DNA of 64,000 bases from an uncultured Candidatus Saccharibacteria bacterium (GTDB lineage: Bacteria; Patescibacteriota; Dojkabacteria; SC72): NCBI GenBank assembly GCA_964610125.1, contig CAZSUV010000001.1, positions 319,877-383,876 on the forward strand, written 5' to 3'. The position numbers and the translations under genes are program-made. Under the pieces are notes generated by a model, which saw only the letters and a list, made by a program, of their open reading frames with translations, did no database searches and had not been told where the DNA came from. Shown here in pieces: positions 3,140-32,399 of this stretch (positions within the stretch are counted from its first letter, which is position 1; every line of letters starts with the position of its first letter).

Positions 3140-3216
3140 GCGAGAGTAGTTCAGTTGGCTAGAACGACACATTGCCAATGTGTAGGTCGCGGGTTCGAAC
3201 CCCGTCTCTCGCTCCA
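3140..3216 (+). tRNA. tRNA-Gly (anticodon GCC), CCA encoded
   Basis: Acceptor GCGAGAG/CTCTCGC, anticodon stem ACACA/TGTGT with loop TTGCCAA, T-loop TTCGAAC. Confidence 0.9.
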
Positions 3217-3224
3217 TATTCAAA

Positions 3225-3578
3225 ATGAAACAATTACCTATTAAACCTACAATAACGATTGAAGACCTTGATAAGGTGGATATTCGTGTTGGTACTATAG
3301 AGAAAGTTGAAGATATGCCTGAATCCAAAAAACTTGTTAGATTAACCGTAGATTTCGGAGAATTCAAAAGAAATATTCTTGTCGGAATGAAATTGGAGAG
3401 GGAAAACCCTAAAGAAATTGAGGGAAAACAAGCTCTATTTGTTGTAAACCTTGCCCCGAGAGAAATGCTTGGCGAAATTTCCGAAGGAATGATTTTTGAT
3501 ATTGGATACAGTAATGAAATTATTCCTGTACTATCTGAACCAGAAAAACCAGTTCCCAATGGATCTTGTGCTGGATAA
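3225..3578 (+). CDS. tRNA-binding domain protein (CsaA/Trbp111/EMAP-like OB fold)
   Basis: 117 aa. DIRVGTIEKVEDMPESKKLVRLTVDFGE...RNILVGMK resembles the tRNA-binding domain found at the MetRS C-terminus and in CsaA. It lies immediately downstream of two tRNAs. Confidence 0.65.
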   Translation: MKQLPIKPTITIEDLDKVDIRVGTIEKVEDMPESKKLVRLTVDFGEFKRNILVGMKLERENPKEIEGKQALFVVNLAPREMLGEISEGMIFDIGYSNEIIPVLSEPEKPVPNGSCAG

Positions 3579-21125: not shown

Positions 21126-21145
21126 CTGTGTATATATATTTAATA

Positions 21146-21218
21146 AGCTAATGGGTGGCCTCGAACCACCGACCTTTCCCTTACGAAGGGATTGCTCTAC
21201 CAACTGAGCTACATCAGC
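21146..21218 (-). tRNA. tRNA-Thr (anticodon CGT)
   Basis: Reverse complement GCTGATGTAGCTCAGTTGGTAGAGC..TCCCT-TCGTAAG-GGGAA..GGTGGTTCGAGGCCACC-CATTAGC-T. Confidence 0.85.
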
Positions 21219-21325
21219 TTAATGTAACGATATTGTAACAAGTGAGAGAGTATATCACAAGGCGAACATACAATTAATTGTGTTAAAGAGAAAAATATTT
21301 TTAAGTGAGGAAACTATTATTTGCG

Positions 21326-22676: not shown

Positions 22677-22752
22677 TGGAGCGAGAGACGAGATTCGAAC
22701 TCGCGACATTCTCCTTGGGAAGGAGACATTCTACCAACTGAATTACTCTCGC
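22677..22752 (-). tRNA. tRNA-Gly (anticodon CCC), CCA encoded
   Basis: Reverse complement GCGAGAGTAATTCAGTTGGTAGAAT..CTCCT-TCCCAAG-GGAGA..GCGAGTTCGAATCTCGT-CTCTCGC-TCCA. Confidence 0.85.
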
Positions 22753-26336: not shown

Positions 26337-26410
26337 GGGCCGCTAGCTCATCCGGTTAGAGCAACTGCCTTTTAAGCAGTAGGTGCTGGGTCCGAGTCCC
26401 AGGCGGCTCA
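26337..26410 (+). tRNA. tRNA-Lys (anticodon TTT). Its 3' end is the integration site (attL) of an integrative element.
   Basis: GGGCCGCTAGCTCATCCGGTTAGAGC-ACTGC-CTTTTAA-GCAGT-AGGTG-CTGGG-TCCGAGT-CCCAG-GCGGCTC-A. The T-loop is TCC, not TTC. No CCA encoded. Confidence 0.85.
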
Positions 26411-27876
26411 CTTCCTGAAACATTTCCTATGGTGATATAGTCTTTAACTTCTTCTAGTACGGATTCTTGAGGTGTTGCAAATTTCTCTCCGTCAAACTGT
26501 AAACCTTCTGAAAATAGGAATTTTTGCAACTCGTTTTGAGATACAACATCCAATTCTGGCCATACAGAACACATATTCTTGAGAAAGTAGGTTGAATATT
26601 CAAGTAATTCATCGTTTTGTTCCTCAATAGGGGAATATTGTGCTATCTCAAATCCGATCTGCGCATACTCATCTTCAAGCTTATCAAGTTGTTCTTTTGC
26701 TATTCGTGGCGGAAGTATTCCATCTATGTTTTGCTGTGATATGGCGCTTTCCTGATTTGTAATTTGCTTTTGCCTTTCTTGCAGTATTTTTAAGTCTGTT
26801 TGATGGGCTTGTTCTTTCTCTTTCCAGTTTAGTTCTATTGCCTTTTTTGTTAGCTCTACGAGGCCCTCAGATAGGCTTACAGACGTAAGATATTCTTCAA
26901 AGGCTTCATGGACCTCTTTCCTTTTCAAGTTAACATTTTTACAAAAAGTACATTTGTAATATGGGTATTTATGTCTAGTCCAGTTTGCCGTCATTTTTCG
27001 GTTACAATGAGGGCACAAGATAGTACCTCTTAAAGGAAAATCTGGGTGTATTTTTCTATATACAGGGGGATTATGATTCTTACCATCGAGAATATCTTGT
27101 ACTAGGTCAAAGATTTTTGGTTCTATAATTGCGGGGAATGATCCTCTGATATATAAATCCATGTTTGGGATATTAATAAATCCTTTGTATATTGGTCTTC
27201 TAACTAATCGATGGAAACTAGAACGACCATACATTTTGTTATTATTATCCTTCAGTCCTATTTTATATGAATAAATTCGAGCATCTTCAATCGTATGCCC
27301 TCCTTCCGAAAGGTACTGAAAAATCTTCTTAATAATTTGTGCTTCTGTTTCATTCTGAATTAAGTTTGCCTTTCCTCTTCCTCCTGTTTGTATATATCCG
27401 TATGGAGCTGCATATACCCATCGTCCTTGTTTTAATGCTTCCATTGTCCCATTTCTTGCTCTCTCTCCTCTGATTTCATTATCCATCTGAGCAGAGGCTG
27501 CCATCATGGTCTCGAAGAAGCGTCCAGCTGGACTATCTTCAAGATTCTCCGTTAAGGAATGTATGCGAACATTATACCTTGCTAATAAAACTTTGAGACT
27601 TCCATAATCAAGTTGCTGTCTGGAGAGTCGATCTATTTTGTAAATTACGAGTGTATCAACAAGATTCTTATTTTTGCTAACAAAATCTAGTAGTTCTTTA
27701 AGTTTAGTTCGATTAATAGTTTTTGCACTCTCTCCATGTTCAATAAATTTCTTAACTATACATAGATCATTCTTTGAGGCAAATTCCTCGCACATTTTTT
27801 CTTGTGTTATCAAACTCAAGCCATTTTCTGCTTGCTCTTTAGTTGAAACACGGCAATAAATTATAATGTTCTTCAT
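26356..27876 (-). CDS. large serine recombinase (resolvase/invertase catalytic domain + recombinase domain + zinc ribbon)
   Basis: N-terminal IIYCRVSTKEQ (catalytic Ser). The recombinase domain includes a C-terminal CPHCNRKMTAN...YYKCTFC zinc ribbon. 506 aa. The 3' end reads into the tRNA-Lys/att region. Confidence 0.85.
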   Translation of the reverse strand: MKNIIIYCRVSTKEQAENGLSLITQEKMCEEFASKNDLCIVKKFIEHGESAKTINRTKLKELLDFVSKNKNLVDTLVIYKIDRLSRQQLDYGSLKVLLARYNVRIHSLTENLEDSPAGRFFETMMAASAQMDNEIRGERARNGTMEALKQGRWVYAAPYGYIQTGGRGKANLIQNETEAQIIKKIFQYLSEGGHTIEDARIYSYKIGLKDNNNKMYGRSSFHRLVRRPIYKGFINIPNMDLYIRGSFPAIIEPKIFDLVQDILDGKNHNPPVYRKIHPDFPLRGTILCPHCNRKMTANWTRHKYPYYKCTFCKNVNLKRKEVHEAFEEYLTSVSLSEGLVELTKKAIELNWKEKEQAHQTDLKILQERQKQITNQESAISQQNIDGILPPRIAKEQLDKLEDEYAQIGFEIAQYSPIEEQNDELLEYSTYFLKNMCSVWPELDVVSQNELQKFLFSEGLQFDGEKFATPQESVLEEVKDYITIGNVSGSEPPGTRTQHLLLKRQLL

Positions 27877-28049
27877 TTTTTCTTCCCCAAATTTTTAGAT
27901 CTTAAATATGATTCTATAACAATATTTGAGAGTCTTTCTACATTAGGAATAAGAAAAGGAATATCCTCCTCTGGAATCTTTAAGGATTTGGCTATAGCGA
28001 CTAACTTTTTATACTTTGCATCAAATGCAGGATCGAAACTAATAGGCAT
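27873..28049 (-). CDS. 58-aa ORF translationally coupled to the recombinase (ATGA overlap). Putative recombination directionality factor/excisionase-like protein.
   Basis: MPISFDPAFDAKYKKLVAIAKSLKIPEEDIPFLIPNVERLSNIVIESYLRSKNLGKKK. Its stop overlaps the recombinase ATG. The position relative to the recombinase is typical for Xis/RDF genes. Confidence 0.35.
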   Translation of the reverse strand: MPISFDPAFDAKYKKLVAIAKSLKIPEEDIPFLIPNVERLSNIVIESYLRSKNLGKKK

Positions 28050-28267
28050 CTAAACAAGCGTACTTATTTATTTTTCGTGCCTAACCTTGGTTAGACACAA
28101 GATGATGCATAAATCAGTTTTCTCCTTACATAAAAAGTTAGTTACCCGTCTCAGATGAGACATTTGTATCTTACAAAATTGCTTAAATGAAGTCAAAAGT
28201 GGAGAAATAATATTTTAATAGCAACATTTTTTTTGATCTTCCTGATGTGTATAAATGTTTAGAGTTT

Positions 28268-28511
28268 TGCTATAATTTATTTGACCTAAACCATATGAAT
28301 TTATGTGGCATGGTTACTAAAGATATTAGCTAATAACTAATATCTACAATCCAACACAATGGCAGAGGCGGGCTTCCGTTTCACTATCATTGTGTTGGTT
28401 ACAGACCGAAAGGTTTGTAGATACCCCGAAAGAGGTATCGGTGAGCGGGAGTCCACTTTCGCAAAGGTTGGCTCTTACTCGTAACCAACCTAAGTTATTA
28501 AAAAAAAGGCT
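28268..28511 (+). ncRNA. candidate structured 5' leader/ncRNA (riboswitch-like) upstream of the Zn-ribbon membrane protein gene
   Basis: Extended -10 TGCTATAAT at 28268-28276. Palindrome AGATATTAG..CTAATATCT (28321-28345). 11-bp perfect stem CCAACACAATG/CATTGTGTTGG (28349-28359/28389-28399). Two GAAA tetraloop hairpins (ACAGACC-GAAA-GGTTTGT; ATACCCC-GAAA-GAGGTAT). A CGCAAAG motif, then stem GGTTGG..CCAACC just before the RBS. Confidence 0.35.
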
Positions 28512-29693
28512 ATGGAGACACAATGTCCTAGCTGTAATAAGAGTGTAGACGTTTATGGTCCAGGAAGGCATAAATGCTCATGGTGTGGTGATTCTTTTAC
28601 TATTAGTGAGAAAAAATTCTCAACAATGAAAGAATCTTTTCGATCTGTCCATGCGACTAATTCTCCTTCTTTAATTTCTTCAGTTGCTGTGGTATTTCTT
28701 TGGATATTATCAGTACTTGGTTTCTTACTAGGCCTAGTATTCTTAGCGGGGAATGCTCTTTCAGGTGCTTTTGCCCTATGTTCTGCATTTATTATTCTCC
28801 CTCCCATCGCCAAATTACTTATCAAATTATTCCATCTCAGATTAATGTATGTTTTTATTGCATCCATTGCTTTGTTTGTAGCAGGCGCAATTATTCTAAG
28901 ATTTCCCCCAGTGAAATATTTTAACTCAGCCCAATCAAATAGTACTGAAACGCAGAGAATCATCCCTGGAAAAACAGAAATAACTACTGATGACCCAAGA
29001 CAAATCCTTTCATATGATTGTGTTAATGTTACAGCAATAAAAATAGGTGAAAAGGATATAGCACCTGCGAGTATTGAGCAAATCTGTAGTGGTAAATATC
29101 ACTTAAATTTACAAAGTGGGCTAAACTCTTACCATATAGAGATAACTACAAAGTCTGGGGTATTAACAGAAGATTTATCTGTTACTTTTGATGAGGTGAC
29201 ATACAATGCCAAACTGAAGGCAATTGCAGATGCAAAGGCACAAGCAGAGGCAGATGCAAAGGCTGCGGAAGAAGCTAAACTACAAGGATATGCAACAAGT
29301 TATTGTGCTAATAGAAAAACCGCAACGAGAAAATATGGGACATTTACGATATCGGATAAAGGTATTTCTGCTGAATTTTCAAAAGGCAAACAAGGACGAT
29401 ATCTAAAAATTGCTGACTGTAGAGCTATCATCGACACAATGATAGCTACAATGAAGAAAAGGGAAGGCTCTGTGAAGTCAGATATTCTTGATTTGATAAT
29501 AGCTGGAGAATACAAAATGGGGATGTATGAATATTATTTCTTTGCATCCGCGGGGAATCCTGATGATATAAATAACTCACAATATGGATCAAATGAGCAT
29601 GATCAAGTGATATATTACAAAGATTCTTATGGAATTAGTGCAAATTACTATTATTTTGATAATGGTGTTTTAACATCAACACAGGATTTCTAG
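28512..29693 (+). CDS. zinc-ribbon membrane protein with large extracytoplasmic domain (element cargo)
   Basis: N-terminal CPSCNKS...HKCSWCG zinc ribbon and three TM helices. The ~250-aa outer domain has an AKAQAEADAKAAEEAK linker and a Tyr/Asn-rich C-terminus. Confidence 0.5.
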   Translation: METQCPSCNKSVDVYGPGRHKCSWCGDSFTISEKKFSTMKESFRSVHATNSPSLISSVAVVFLWILSVLGFLLGLVFLAGNALSGAFALCSAFIILPPIAKLLIKLFHLRLMYVFIASIALFVAGAIILRFPPVKYFNSAQSNSTETQRIIPGKTEITTDDPRQILSYDCVNVTAIKIGEKDIAPASIEQICSGKYHLNLQSGLNSYHIEITTKSGVLTEDLSVTFDEVTYNAKLKAIADAKAQAEADAKAAEEAKLQGYATSYCANRKTATRKYGTFTISDKGISAEFSKGKQGRYLKIADCRAIIDTMIATMKKREGSVKSDILDLIIAGEYKMGMYEYYFFASAGNPDDINNSQYGSNEHDQVIYYKDSYGISANYYYFDNGVLTSTQDF

Positions 29694-29696
29694 TGC

Positions 29697-29714
29697 TGCA
29701 ACAACGTTGTTGCA
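29697..29714. repeat. 18-bp perfect palindrome TGCAACAACGTTGTTGCA immediately after the stop of the membrane protein gene
   Basis: Self-complementary by inspection. Possible terminator stem or operator. Confidence 0.6.
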
Positions 29715-29732
29715 AAGGCGTTTCGAATTTTT

Positions 29733-29841
29733 CGGTGCGTATAAAAAAGGGGATTTTTGAATAGCTTTTGACACTTTTCCGATGCGTATAAAAAGGGGAT
29801 TTGAGATAAGTTTTTACTTTTTCAGTGCATATAAAAAAGGA
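29733..29841. repeat. three direct repeats (~24 bp, period ~45 bp): CGGTGCGTATAAAAAAGGGGATTT / CCGATGCGTATAAAAAGGGGATTT / CAGTGCATATAAAAAAGGAACGGA, each preceded by a T-run
   Basis: Copies at 29733-29756, 29779-29802 and 29823-29841. Each contains a TATAAAA -10-like core. A TTGACA sits in spacer 1 at 29769-29774. Confidence 0.65.
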
Positions 29842-29949
29842 ACGGAATTTGGTTATTCAATATTTTCCCCCTAATCTTATGTGAGGCCTCTTTCGTTTGT
29901 TTAACAATTTGTACTTGTAAATTACATTTATTATCAATATAATCAAAGA

Positions 29950-30264
29950 ATGGAACCCAATAACGATCAAATCCAGGAAATACAACTTGCTGGGAAGAAG
30001 TTAGACTCCAATACCCAGGACATTTCAATAATAGAAGAATATGGAAAGAATCTTTTCTTAGAAAATGAAAAGTTTATTAAAGAAAAAGTTCCAGATAATT
30101 GGTTCGCAATTATAGACCCATTTAATGCTTTGCTTATTGCTTCGCCAGATACTGTAACGCTATATCAATATTCTCAGAAAAGAACATCTAATATGCTCTT
30201 TTACTTCGTTGGTCTGATAAAAAACAGTTTTAAGAATATGTACATATATGCAAGAAGAGATTAA
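29950..30264 (+). CDS. hypothetical protein (104 aa), overlapping the downstream protease gene by 17 nt
   Basis: ORF with start 100 nt downstream of the repeat trio. No recognisable motifs. Confidence 0.3.
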   Translation: MEPNNDQIQEIQLAGKKLDSNTQDISIIEEYGKNLFLENEKFIKEKVPDNWFAIIDPFNALLIASPDTVTLYQYSQKRTSNMLFYFVGLIKNSFKNMYIYARRD

Positions 30265-30727
30265 GCAACAAAGATTAGAATTCCCTGTCGCAGATAACTT
30301 TTCACCAGAAATTACAATTGAGGTTATTGGACTTTCAGGGGAGTCTAGGAAAGTTGTTGCTATAGTCGATACTGGATTCACAGGTTTTTTACAAATACCT
30401 TTGGCAATAGGAATTTCATGCAATTTAGCCCTTTGGAGTATTAGTACTTCCATCCTAGCAGATGGGAGCAGGGTTCGTAACCTTCAATGTTTTGGGAAAA
30501 TTCGTTTTGGAAACAAAGAACTAGCTAATATACTGACATTATCTGATACTGGAAACGACTGCTTATTAGGGGTGCAATTCCTCCAAGAGTTAAAGGGAGA
30601 ATTCATCTTATCACATGCCGAAAAGAAAGCGATTTTTTGTTTCCCAGAAGTTGAACAATTAAAAGATGGTCCTAAAGATAAAACGGCTGAAAGTGGTACG
30701 AAATCAAAGAAAGAAAAGAAAAAATAA
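30248..30727 (+). CDS. retropepsin-like (clan AA) aspartyl protease
   Basis: VAIVDTGFTGFLQIPL contains the D-T-G-(F/A) catalytic triad in a hydrophobic context. The later LLGVQFL is flap/dimerisation-like. Lys-rich C-terminal tail. 159 aa. Confidence 0.6.
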   Translation: MQEEIKQQRLEFPVADNFSPEITIEVIGLSGESRKVVAIVDTGFTGFLQIPLAIGISCNLALWSISTSILADGSRVRNLQCFGKIRFGNKELANILTLSDTGNDCLLGVQFLQELKGEFILSHAEKKAIFCFPEVEQLKDGPKDKTAESGTKSKKEKKK

Positions 30728-30749
30728 TTGAATCCCCTTTTGTGAAGAT

Positions 30750-31592
30750 TTACAGTGCTAATATGCTAGAAGGTTTTCCGAGGCAGCATTTTTTATACTT
30801 TAATCCACTTCCGCACGGGCAAGGGGAATTACGTCCGATTTTAGTTTTATTTCTAACAGTTGTTTGTATTGGTTCAACGCTTAAACACATATCGGCTATT
30901 TGAAAACCACTTGAATTTTTATATATATTGGCAGTAGGGCATACATATCCAGGCTCTAAAGTCTTTCTAACCTCATGGGCAATTTGCCTAATAGAACCTG
31001 CGATTACATCTACAAAATATGCTTTTTCTGTAGTATTGTTTCCAAACATTAATCCAAGTGAATTGAAATATTTCATATTTAGATATACCTCGTCAGTTAA
31101 CTCAGTATCTATATGAGCTCCACCATCTTGGTCTGCCACATTTAAGACTAAGTCTTTTCTTGTTAAGCCTTGTCCACTACTGTCGTTTATTACAACTGCA
31201 TTCCACCAGTCATTAAAATTAGCTTTCTTTATACCATCATGCGAAGGATCTTCATCTAAGAGAGGAATAGGATGCTTGAAACTTGGATCAATTATAGTGA
31301 GTCCATAGTGTGACATGGGAATTGAAATAGGATTCTTAACAATGTATGTGTCTAAAAAGTCCGTTGTTTCTAAAAGATTCATGCTTCCAAGAAGAGATTT
31401 GCTATTCCTAGTATCATGTAGCAAAAGCCTTAGCCTTGCTGCCATATTTTTAGCCTCTGCATAGGAACCCTCATCATAGCTTTTAATTGAGTTGTCTAGA
31501 AGCTCGAGTTGCTCCTTCAGATCATTTTGTAAATTTTCTGTAGTCTTTATATAGGTCATATTTGAAGTATAGGATATTTTTTTACATAACAA
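30750..31592 (-). CDS. SEC-C-motif (CPCGSG..KYKKCC) zinc-binding protein of unknown function
   Basis: C-terminal [15 protein letters not shown] is a textbook SecA-C-terminal-type SEC-C motif. The remaining ~250 aa have no recognised domain. The true start may be Met at 31559. Confidence 0.5.
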
Positions 31593-31790
31593 AAGATATG
31601 GGGCTAGGGAAGCAATATTCTCTCTAAAGATACTAGAGCGTAAGTAAGCTTATAGGGGCGTTGTTTTTGAAACTTCTCTAGCAGACAGAAGTATAATATG
31701 CTAATGCTGAAGTATACAATCGCAAAGTTATATATGAATCAAGCAGATGATCTAAATTTTAGAAGAAATGCCTATGAATAATAAATAAAA

Positions 31791-31830
31791 AAGACCTCAA
31801 ATGTGTAGTTTATGAGGTCTTTTTCTTAGG
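31791..31830. terminator. bidirectional intrinsic-terminator-like hairpin (AAAAAAGACCTCA..TGAGGTCTTTTTCTT)
   Basis: 9-bp stem AGACCTCAT/ATGAGGTCT flanked by an A-run and a T-run, in the 240-nt gap between divergent genes. Confidence 0.5.
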
Positions 31831-31904
31831 ACATGTATTTCGATAAACACATTGTACTAATGTTTTCCAATAACTTCAAGATTTTAATTTTAAGGGTTAC
31901 TACA

Positions 31905-32192
31905 ATGTCTGAATATAATATTTATGCGACTAGCAGAGTTTCAAGTACTCCAATCTATTCGGAGGAAGAAATATCTGGTTATTACTTTTGGTTAAACGGG
32001 GTCCAAAGGTATCTTTCTAAGGCGGATATGAGGAATGCGTATCGAGTTGGAGATCAATATTTTACCTATCGCTCTAATTCTCAGCCAAGAACGGCGTGTT
32101 CTTGGGAGATAAGCACTCGTAGAGAATGGTATCTAAAGAGTTATCCTAACAATACAAGTGCAGATAACCTTTTATCTTTGCCAATAATATAG
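31905..32192 (+). CDS. hypothetical protein (96 aa from Met 31905), last gene inside the element
   Basis: ORF only. Start chosen at the first Met after the terminator hairpin. Confidence 0.3.
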   Translation: MSEYNIYATSRVSSTPIYSEEEISGYYFWLNGVQRYLSKADMRNAYRVGDQYFTYRSNSQPRTACSWEISTRREWYLKSYPNNTSADNLLSLPII

Positions 32193-32399
32193 GTGGTAAG
32201 GGGCATTGAAATATATGCCCCTCCTATACAGTACTATTCCCATGCTGTATTTATACTCAGGCTTTCAGGTGTAATATTCAATCGCTTTAATAAAGATCCT
32301 AGGCTTAACAACCTTTCTGTAATTTGTTGCAAAACTTTTCCAGGCGGCTCACTTTCTCTCCATAGACTTATCCACATTCTTAACATATAATGATGATAT

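Follow-up and report, generated by a model that had tools for sequence, protein, structure and literature searches.

Two overlapping open reading frames (ORFs) in the genome of an uncultured Candidatus Saccharibacteria bacterium raise the question of what a minimal aspartic protease of the retroviral type does in such a cell, and what the small protein encoded directly in front of it contributes. The locus was analyzed within a stretch of 64,000 nt (contig CAZSUV010000001.1, positions 319,877 to 383,876, assembly GCA_964610125.1), which is called the window below and to which all coordinates refer unless another locus is named. The first ORF (29950..30264, + strand) encodes 104 amino acids and the second (30248..30727, + strand) 159 amino acids; both start with ATG and they overlap by 17 nt (30248..30264), with the protease in frame +1 relative to its partner. 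An earlier note on this DNA, made from the letters alone, had described these two ORFs, their overlap and a DTG-F signature in the longer product, and its coordinates and features were all correct. Judged from their homologs both are genuine genes and no chance ORFs: the protease ORF because 26 database homologs with 50-65% identity exist, and the 104-aa ORF because positional homologs with 35-44% identity occur in related genomes of the Candidate Phyla Radiation (CPR; loci L004-L007). The protease belongs to a family which is already known and is functionally an orphan. New are the obligate partner of the enzyme and a genomic behavior of the pair that resembles toxin-antitoxin systems.

A single-lobe protease of the retropepsin type

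Comparison with the NCBIfam models assigned residues 23-117 of the 159-aa protein to TIGR03698 ("clan AA aspartic protease, DTGF"; E 3.7e-11, 43.3 bits). The curated cut-off of 57.35 bits is not reached by this score, nor by the relatives from CPR, Chloroflexota and Acidobacteriota with 37-53 bits, whereas the Nostoc-type plasmid proteases lie above it with 72-86 bits. By sequence the protease is thus a diverged sister of TIGR03698 and no member by the curated rule. Pfam gave a sub-threshold hint alone (gag-asp_proteas, E 0.095).

The active-site signature lies within VVAIVDTGFTGFLQIPL (IVDTGFTGF). The codons of D41-T42-G43-F44 (30368..30379) follow those of the hydrophobic residues I39-V40, and in the structural model the motif is situated where strand 33-41 ends; D41, T42 and G43 are invariant across the 26 homologs. 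Residues 61-87 (30428..30508) are predicted to form a beta-hairpin from the strands 61-69 and 75-87 with the turn L70-A71-D72-G73, whose first three residues (L70, A71, D72) never vary and whose G73 is kept in at least 90% of the sequences. By analogy this hairpin is taken as the flap. Further downstream, L106-L107-G108 and a single alpha-helix comprising residues 109-114 follow (together 30560..30589), the former at model strand 105-108, and L106, G108, F111 and L112 are again invariant. A hydrophobic-hydrophobic-Gly motif followed by a helix is the second hallmark of retropepsins.

The AlphaFold model, which was built on the alignment of the 26 homologs, has a mean predicted local distance difference test score (pLDDT) of 79.6. 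It comprises a strand leading into the DTG loop, the long hairpin tipped by LADG, the LLG strand with its single helix, and terminal strands, with a structured core of residues ~7-133 and a lysine-rich disordered tail (residues 137-159, pLDDT below 50). A conserved LEFPxxxNxSPE segment lies at the N-terminus of the protease and its homologs. When the model was compared with the PDB by Foldseek, APRc from Rickettsia was the top match (5c9f, E 9e-7, template modeling (TM) score 0.72 normalized to APRc), followed by the proteases of HTLV-1, XMRV, HIV-1, EIAV and M-PMV and by Ddi1 (2i1a), with E values from 9e-7 to 2e-3 over the series; lobes of the pepsin family ranked below the retropepsins. A direct hhalign comparison with HIV-1 protease was non-significant (E 0.073), though D41 was aligned with D25, and the assignment to clan AA is therefore based on the NCBIfam model and on the fold. 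The identification of a clan AA, retropepsin-like enzyme in the earlier note thus holds, and its DTG context was modeled in a retropepsin fold with flap hairpin and LLG-helix, as had been proposed for a Foldseek check. On the basis of sequence and model, the 159-aa protein is a single-lobe, clan AA retropepsin-like aspartic protease of the TIGR03698/COG5550 lineage. Single-lobe enzymes of clan AA have to homodimerize to build a catalytic site with two aspartates. By hydropathy analysis neither the protease nor its partner has a signal peptide or a transmembrane segment, and the protease is for this reason likely to be cytoplasmic.

COG5550 comprises prokaryotic, single-domain, non-viral peptidases of clan AA, including AF_0612 of A. 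fulgidus, about which little is known (2009 survey, PMC2642776). In bacteria, enzymes of the COG5550/TIGR03698 type have been on record since the 2000s without an assigned function. Like them, the protease in the window has a single-lobe core of ~110 residues with DTGF, a flap with LADG and the LLG-helix, and over a stretch of 75 residues it is 32% identical to the enzyme from the plasmid of Nostoc PCC 7120; the N-terminal segment and the lysine-rich tail go beyond the TIGR03698 model. The statement in the earlier note that retropepsin-like proteases are rare and functionally undefined in bacteria is dated, given that the TIGR03698-type family comprises 703 clusters at 50% identity and that APRc, RimB and RloA have been characterized. 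Unlike these three, the clade of the window protease itself is still unstudied. One further entry among the protease clusters is a protein of 2930 amino acids (P0178), which the protease profile matches at 11 separate places, each time with its positions 15-42, i.e., the strands into the DTG loop. This giant protein may consist of repeats or be an artifact.

APRc (RC1339) of Rickettsia conorii is a retropepsin-like protease of known structure (PDB 5c9f/5c9b; PMC4140852). As a bacterial, single-lobe member of clan AA it is the closest structural match of the window enzyme, with which it shares 14-16% identity, and it belongs to a different family. APRc reportedly sits in the membrane and acts on the surface of the cell. 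In contrast, the window enzyme lacks both a signal peptide and a membrane segment, and a partner gene dedicated to it lies upstream. RimB and RloA of Pseudomonas are retropepsin-like as well and are encoded in operons with partner proteins (PMC11957791, PMC11957051), which are ATP-grasp or transglutaminase-like; their substrates are polyglutamate tails, RimB being a polyglutamate trimmer that acts together with RimK, and RloA is secreted (PMC11957791, PMC11957051). Both differ from the window protease in belonging to the Pfam family Zn_protease, to which neither protein of the window pair gave a match. Polyglutamate specificity is a trait of RimB and RloA, and nothing suggests the same for the window protease.

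The upstream partner and the pair as one unit

For the analysis of gene neighborhood, 53 genome loci encoding relatives of the window protease were used. By ORF extraction an ORF of 90-125 codons was found directly 5′ of the protease at every one of them, and a match to the hidden Markov model (HMM) of the partner family was present directly 5′ and on the same strand in all 53, about half of which had been outside the input of the HMM. The earlier note had made its interpretation dependent on such a conservation of neighbors, and with respect to the small upstream ORF it was borne out. The pair occurs in about nine phyla or groups: CPR, Acidobacteriota, Chloroflexota, Planctomycetota, Cyanobacteria, Armatimonadota, SAR324, Zixibacteria and Termititenax. 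Both genes have their nearest relatives in metagenome-assembled genomes of Saccharibacteria and Levybacteria, which makes a CPR bacterium the probable source of the window.

The two genes overlap at 48 of the 53 junctions. In 29 of the 53 the overlap is 4 nt long (ATGA or GTGA), it spans 8-38 nt in pairs of the CPR and Acidobacteriota types, and an overlap of exactly 17 nt is shared by the window with four CPR relatives (L004, L065, L067, L069). The arrangement corresponds to that of type II toxin-antitoxin systems in that two adjacent, co-directional and overlapping small genes are paired across distant taxa. Such a gene geometry is consistent with coupled expression, and the 17-nt overlap is probably a site of translational coupling. 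Partner and protease have moreover diverged together: their pairwise identities correlate with r = 0.73 among 39 non-redundant pairs, the maximum of 300 label permutations being 0.27. Natural fusions with the partner domain at the N-terminus are present in P0207 and P0248, found among the best 150 of the 703 protease clusters, and indicate at the sequence level that the two proteins act together. Extra copies within one locus or genome, either a second pair or an additional partner, were detected at six loci (L023, L028, L035, L037, L040, L052). Judged from this distribution, the two genes are a self-contained cassette that moves horizontally.

A sigma-70-like match (TTGTAA-17-TATAAT, 29915..29943, + strand) found by consensus scan ends 6 nt 5′ of the partner ATG and could drive the operon, perhaps with a leaderless transcript; sigma-70-like sites are no commoner in this region than in shuffled sequence, which makes the match weak evidence. 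The 256-nt gap 5′ of the partner gene also contains three direct repeats of ~21 nt, TTYCGRTGCRTATAAAAARGG, at 29730-29750, 29777-29797 and 29820-29840 (+ strand; spaced 47 and 43 nt), which occur nowhere else in the window (0 expected by chance). As operator sites they are unsupported, comparable repeats being absent 5′ of the pair in eight CPR relatives.

When the 104-aa protein was used as query in a word-indexed search for homologs, it matched nothing but itself. The resulting idea of an orphan ORF was rejected when extraction of the positional ORFs combined with profile searches recovered a family. Its pattern consists of G-x-x-[IL]-[YF], an invariant E, [FV]-[AV]-I-[DE], P, a hydrophobic strand, G and a second strand, and the family HMM matches the window at 29941-30261 with E 3e-23. 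Widespread partners have ~90 amino acids; an N-terminal extension of ~25 amino acids is conserved and specific to the CPR clade. In a profile-profile comparison by hhalign, the CPR type (5 sequences) and the type from other phyla (28 sequences) were matched with a probability of 87.5% and E 3.6e-6, and by this measure they are homologous. With E ≤ 1e-3, 5,262 members of the partner family were identified by profile search in a collection of 5.8 billion proteins. Nearly all of them are named "hypothetical protein" and carry no Pfam domain; a few are tandem duplications.

The partner in the window gave no match in Pfam, NCBIfam, PADLOC or PHROG. A possible distant kinship exists to DUF5678 (PF18929), a family without known function. 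One of about ten single-domain partners matched it (E 0.007, 16.6 bits), and its gathering threshold of 23.2 bits was passed by the tandem-duplicated partner P0029 alone (26.4 bits), whereas the window partner fails the threshold and, like most members tested, lacks any Pfam match. Residues 23-104 of the partner were modeled with AlphaFold, the alignment of the full 104 amino acids with database sequences having been out of register; the model (pLDDT 77) has a long N-terminal helix followed by beta-beta-alpha-beta-beta. It superimposes on a DUF5678 protein from Pandoravirus with TM 0.61 and a non-significant E of 0.22. The possibility that the partner is a ubiquitin-like protein, whose C-terminal GG is exposed by the protease, was rejected because FGG is confined to the Chloroflexota type and the conserved glycine lies in a hairpin turn; no ubiquitin-like fold was among the PDB matches of the partner model.

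Genomic surroundings and interpretation

Across the loci examined the pair is constant and its flanks are variable. It was found between uvrB and uvrA (near lexA), between genes for a nuclease and a radical-SAM protein, beside a PanA/SocA gene with an IS1595 transposase, and near SymE. A tblastn search of plasmids with the cyanobacterial partner, the only query from which plasmid matches came, yielded ten cyanobacterial plasmids, some of them conjugative. In five of seven examined plasmids the RefSeq annotation reads "hypothetical protein" and then "clan AA aspartic protease", with an overlap of 4 nt. As the proteases of these Nostoc-type plasmids score past the TIGR03698 cut-off and have the same upstream partner as the window enzyme, the pairing reaches into the curated family. 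On plasmids of Nostoc PCC 7120 (alpha), Trichormus variabilis and N. commune the pair adjoins ParDE. On plasmid pNSMS101 of Nostoc sp. MS1 (L072, 2483-3120) it is inserted between pglZ and pglX of a bacteriophage exclusion (BREX) system, with an IS630 transposase nearby, and a further plasmid location is beside genes for a helicase and a DUF1156 protein.

Five independent contigs of Microcystis (L057-L061) carry an intact partner followed by a protease that is cut off after DTGFTGF. In one of them (L057, 3697-4117) an intact gene for an 88-aa partner precedes a remnant of 53 protease codons which ends just past DTGFTGFLTLPL; this contig and L058 also have a second, solo copy of the partner, and the Microcystis stretch with the remnant holds genes for ParE, HicA, AIPR and DUF29 proteins. 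By analogy, such a decay is the pattern that would be expected if a toxin were lost and its antidote kept. The multiple copies and the mobile, plasmid, island and defense-associated locations of the pair are sampled cases rather than a statistical enrichment.

Based on these findings we tentatively favor the interpretation that the pair is a mobile, toxin-antitoxin-like or defense cassette, in which the partner would restrain a cytoplasmic, homodimeric aspartic protease. The small alpha/beta partner is encoded first, and the protease would be translationally coupled to it. Homodimerization of the protease would form the active site with two aspartates, and the partner would bind to the protease and hold it in an inactive state, acting like a pro-segment in trans that either prevents dimerization or fills the cleft. 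If the partner were lost or titrated, the freed protease would cleave proteins of the cell or of an invader and growth arrest would follow. Physical binding, inhibition, toxicity and substrates are what we infer in this scheme. More doubtful is the broader proposal that the pair represents an unrecognized class of toxin-antitoxin or abortive-infection system, distributed from CPR to cyanobacteria on plasmids, islands and at BREX and ParDE loci, with a retropepsin effector held by a pro-segment in trans.

The likeness to type II toxin-antitoxin systems such as ParDE and HicAB includes two small, co-directional and overlapping genes with the smaller one first, a patchy and wide distribution, multiple copies, sites on plasmids, on islands and at defense loci, and orphan "antidotes" next to a decayed enzyme gene. 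The likeness is one of gene organization; the partner differs from type II antitoxins in having no DNA-binding domain. A literature search in open-access PMC and bioRxiv yielded no aspartic-protease toxin, no report on the pair and none on the partner family, with searches including DUF5678, COG5550 and aspartic proteases combined with antitoxin, defense or abortive infection.

Several observations weigh against the interpretation as a toxin-antitoxin-like cassette. Neither Pfam nor NCBIfam revealed an RHH, HTH, AbrB or Phd domain in the partner, classic autoregulation is unsupported because a recognizable DNA-binding domain is missing, and conserved operator repeats were absent 5′ of the pair in the eight CPR relatives. 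The charges are distributed in the opposite way to many toxin-antitoxin pairs, the protease being acidic with a median isoelectric point of 4.4 and the partner having one of 6.7. The model of the partner gave no significant structural match in the PDB, and its details are unreliable since the input alignment was ~3 residues out of register at the first helix. No match of the window protease was obtained in IMG/VR viral contigs, phage genomes or the plasmid collection, and no PADLOC model or PHROG family matched either gene of the pair. Some copies finally lie in housekeeping surroundings, e.g., the one between uvrB and uvrA. A DNA-binding antitoxin is not required in every type of toxin-antitoxin system.

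Some of these observations can be read in favor of a non-toxic processing or regulatory protease, which performs a specific maturation or turnover step and for which the partner is substrate, adaptor or a factor of folding or activation. RimB and RloA set a precedent as proteases that act with partner proteins on narrow substrates, the N-terminal fusion of the partner resembles the architecture of a pro-domain or an adaptor, and the pair is kept even in very small CPR genomes. The location of one copy in the uvr region near lexA, the lack of an antitoxin-type DNA-binding domain and of conserved operators, and the acidic protease, unlike many toxins, agree with such a function, too. A housekeeping role nevertheless fails to predict the patchy distribution, the variable flanks and the several copies per genome, as well as plasmid sites next to ParDE or within BREX and the decay of the protease with the partner kept, and we consider it the main, if less likely, alternative.

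A far less probable explanation of the overlap is a single polyprotein, which would be made by programmed ribosomal frameshifting in the manner of Gag-Pro and then cleave itself. The retroviral type of the protease, overlaps of 8-38 nt in CPR and Acidobacteriota that exceed the need of simple coupling, and the two fused ORFs in the best 150 cluster representatives would fit. The offset between the frames is, however, +1 in CPR and Acidobacteriota and -1 in the ATGA and GTGA types of Chloroflexota and cyanobacteria, and some pairs have no overlap. Each protease ORF has a start codon of its own, placed where the homologous proteins have their N-termini, GGAG is placed ~8 nt before the GTG in the Chloroflexota copies, and indels or errors in sequencing might account for the fusions. 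With an offset that varies from clade to clade, Gag-Pro-like frameshifting was rejected and translational coupling is preferred. As in Gag-Pro and Ddi1, a retropepsin domain follows another module in the same polypeptide or expression unit; in the pair, however, the two are almost always separate genes, without a ubiquitin-like match and without a conserved frameshift geometry. Scarcely credible is the proposal, taken from the earlier note, that protease, partner and the convergent SEC-C protein (280 amino acids, 30750-31592, - strand; PF02810, E 3.7e-9) form one island-specific effector or sensor system. The SEC-C gene is indeed present, adjacent and convergent to the pair on the same ~5.9-kb island, and SEC-C motifs occur at the C-termini of some candidate defense proteins in PADLOC. 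In the CPR relatives and plasmid copies examined, however, a SEC-C gene never adjoins the pair, and the PADLOC matches (E2/PDC-S12) are limited to the zinc motif in the last ~30 residues, while residues 16-214 match phrog_7805, a phage family with unassigned function (E 8e-40). Judged from this unconserved neighborhood, a common system with the SEC-C protein is largely refuted.

The cassette interpretation, if true, would add aspartic proteases to the known toxin or defense effectors. The pair on the alpha plasmid of Nostoc PCC 7120, WP_010999914.1 with WP_010999913.1, would then be a tractable model for a minimal retropepsin under the control of a protein inhibitor, and the pair would represent a free-living prokaryotic case of the "accessory module plus retropepsin" arrangement of Gag-Pro and Ddi1. 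Should the toxin-antitoxin reading not hold, an orphan protease family would nevertheless have gained, through the strict pairing, its first candidate interaction partner. To this family the analysis adds an obligatory, so far unannotated upstream partner, a large family of "hypothetical" partner proteins and a genomic behavior resembling addiction or defense modules, and the module extends into the reduced genomes of CPR.

The island in the window

The earlier note had regarded the protease as cargo of a mobile element, and this view is confirmed by a tRNA-Lys, a serine recombinase and 18-nt repeats that delimit a probable integrated island of ~5.9 kb (26337..32357). The tRNA-Lys lies at 26337-26411. 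The large serine recombinase (26356-27876, - strand) has Resolvase (E 7.6e-32), Recombinase (E 3.7e-10) and Zn_ribbon_recom (E 1.6e-7) domains and matches the integrase family phrog_95 (E 3.6e-79). Its ORF extends 56 nt into the tRNA-Lys on the opposite strand, so that, at the junction of the island, the antisense strand of the tRNA supplies the codons for its C-terminal residues. The att-like direct repeats (26399-26416 and 32340-32357, 5.94 kb apart) consist of the last 13 nt of the tRNA-Lys and 5 further nucleotides; no further match exists in the 64 kb, where 0 would be expected by chance. Three recombinase domains, an adjacent attachment site and a repeat of the target at the far end are what characterizes integrative islands of serine recombinases, and the island was thus probably integrated by the recombinase at the tRNA-Lys. 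Its GC content is the same as that of the flanks. A serine recombinase was not found with the pair in the other loci examined, and by the sequence comparison the island is the context of the pair in this genome and lies outside the conserved module.

Between the recombinase, together with a 58-aa ORF, and an ORF of 393 codons, a LOOT RNA is located (28283-28439, + strand; Rfam RF03000, full-length, 49.0 bits with a gathering threshold of 46.4, E 2.6e-8). Small ORFs called over it are probably spurious. In 2017, 224 candidate RNA motifs were the subject of a paper whose main text does not discuss LOOT. The 393-aa product (28512-29693, + strand) is a zinc-ribbon membrane protein with N-terminal CxxC...CxxC and hydrophobic segments, for which sub-threshold Pfam hints and no significant family match were obtained. 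A 119-aa ORF (31833-32192) is also part of the island.

Elsewhere in the window, ARAGORN called a tRNA-Gly (+) and a tRNA-Ser (-) within 3140-3251, which overlap each other at 3180-3216, and a tRNA-Thr (21145-21219) and a tRNA-Gly (22677-22752) that overlap the ends of long ORFs; some of the tRNA or ORF calls at these three places are probably wrong.

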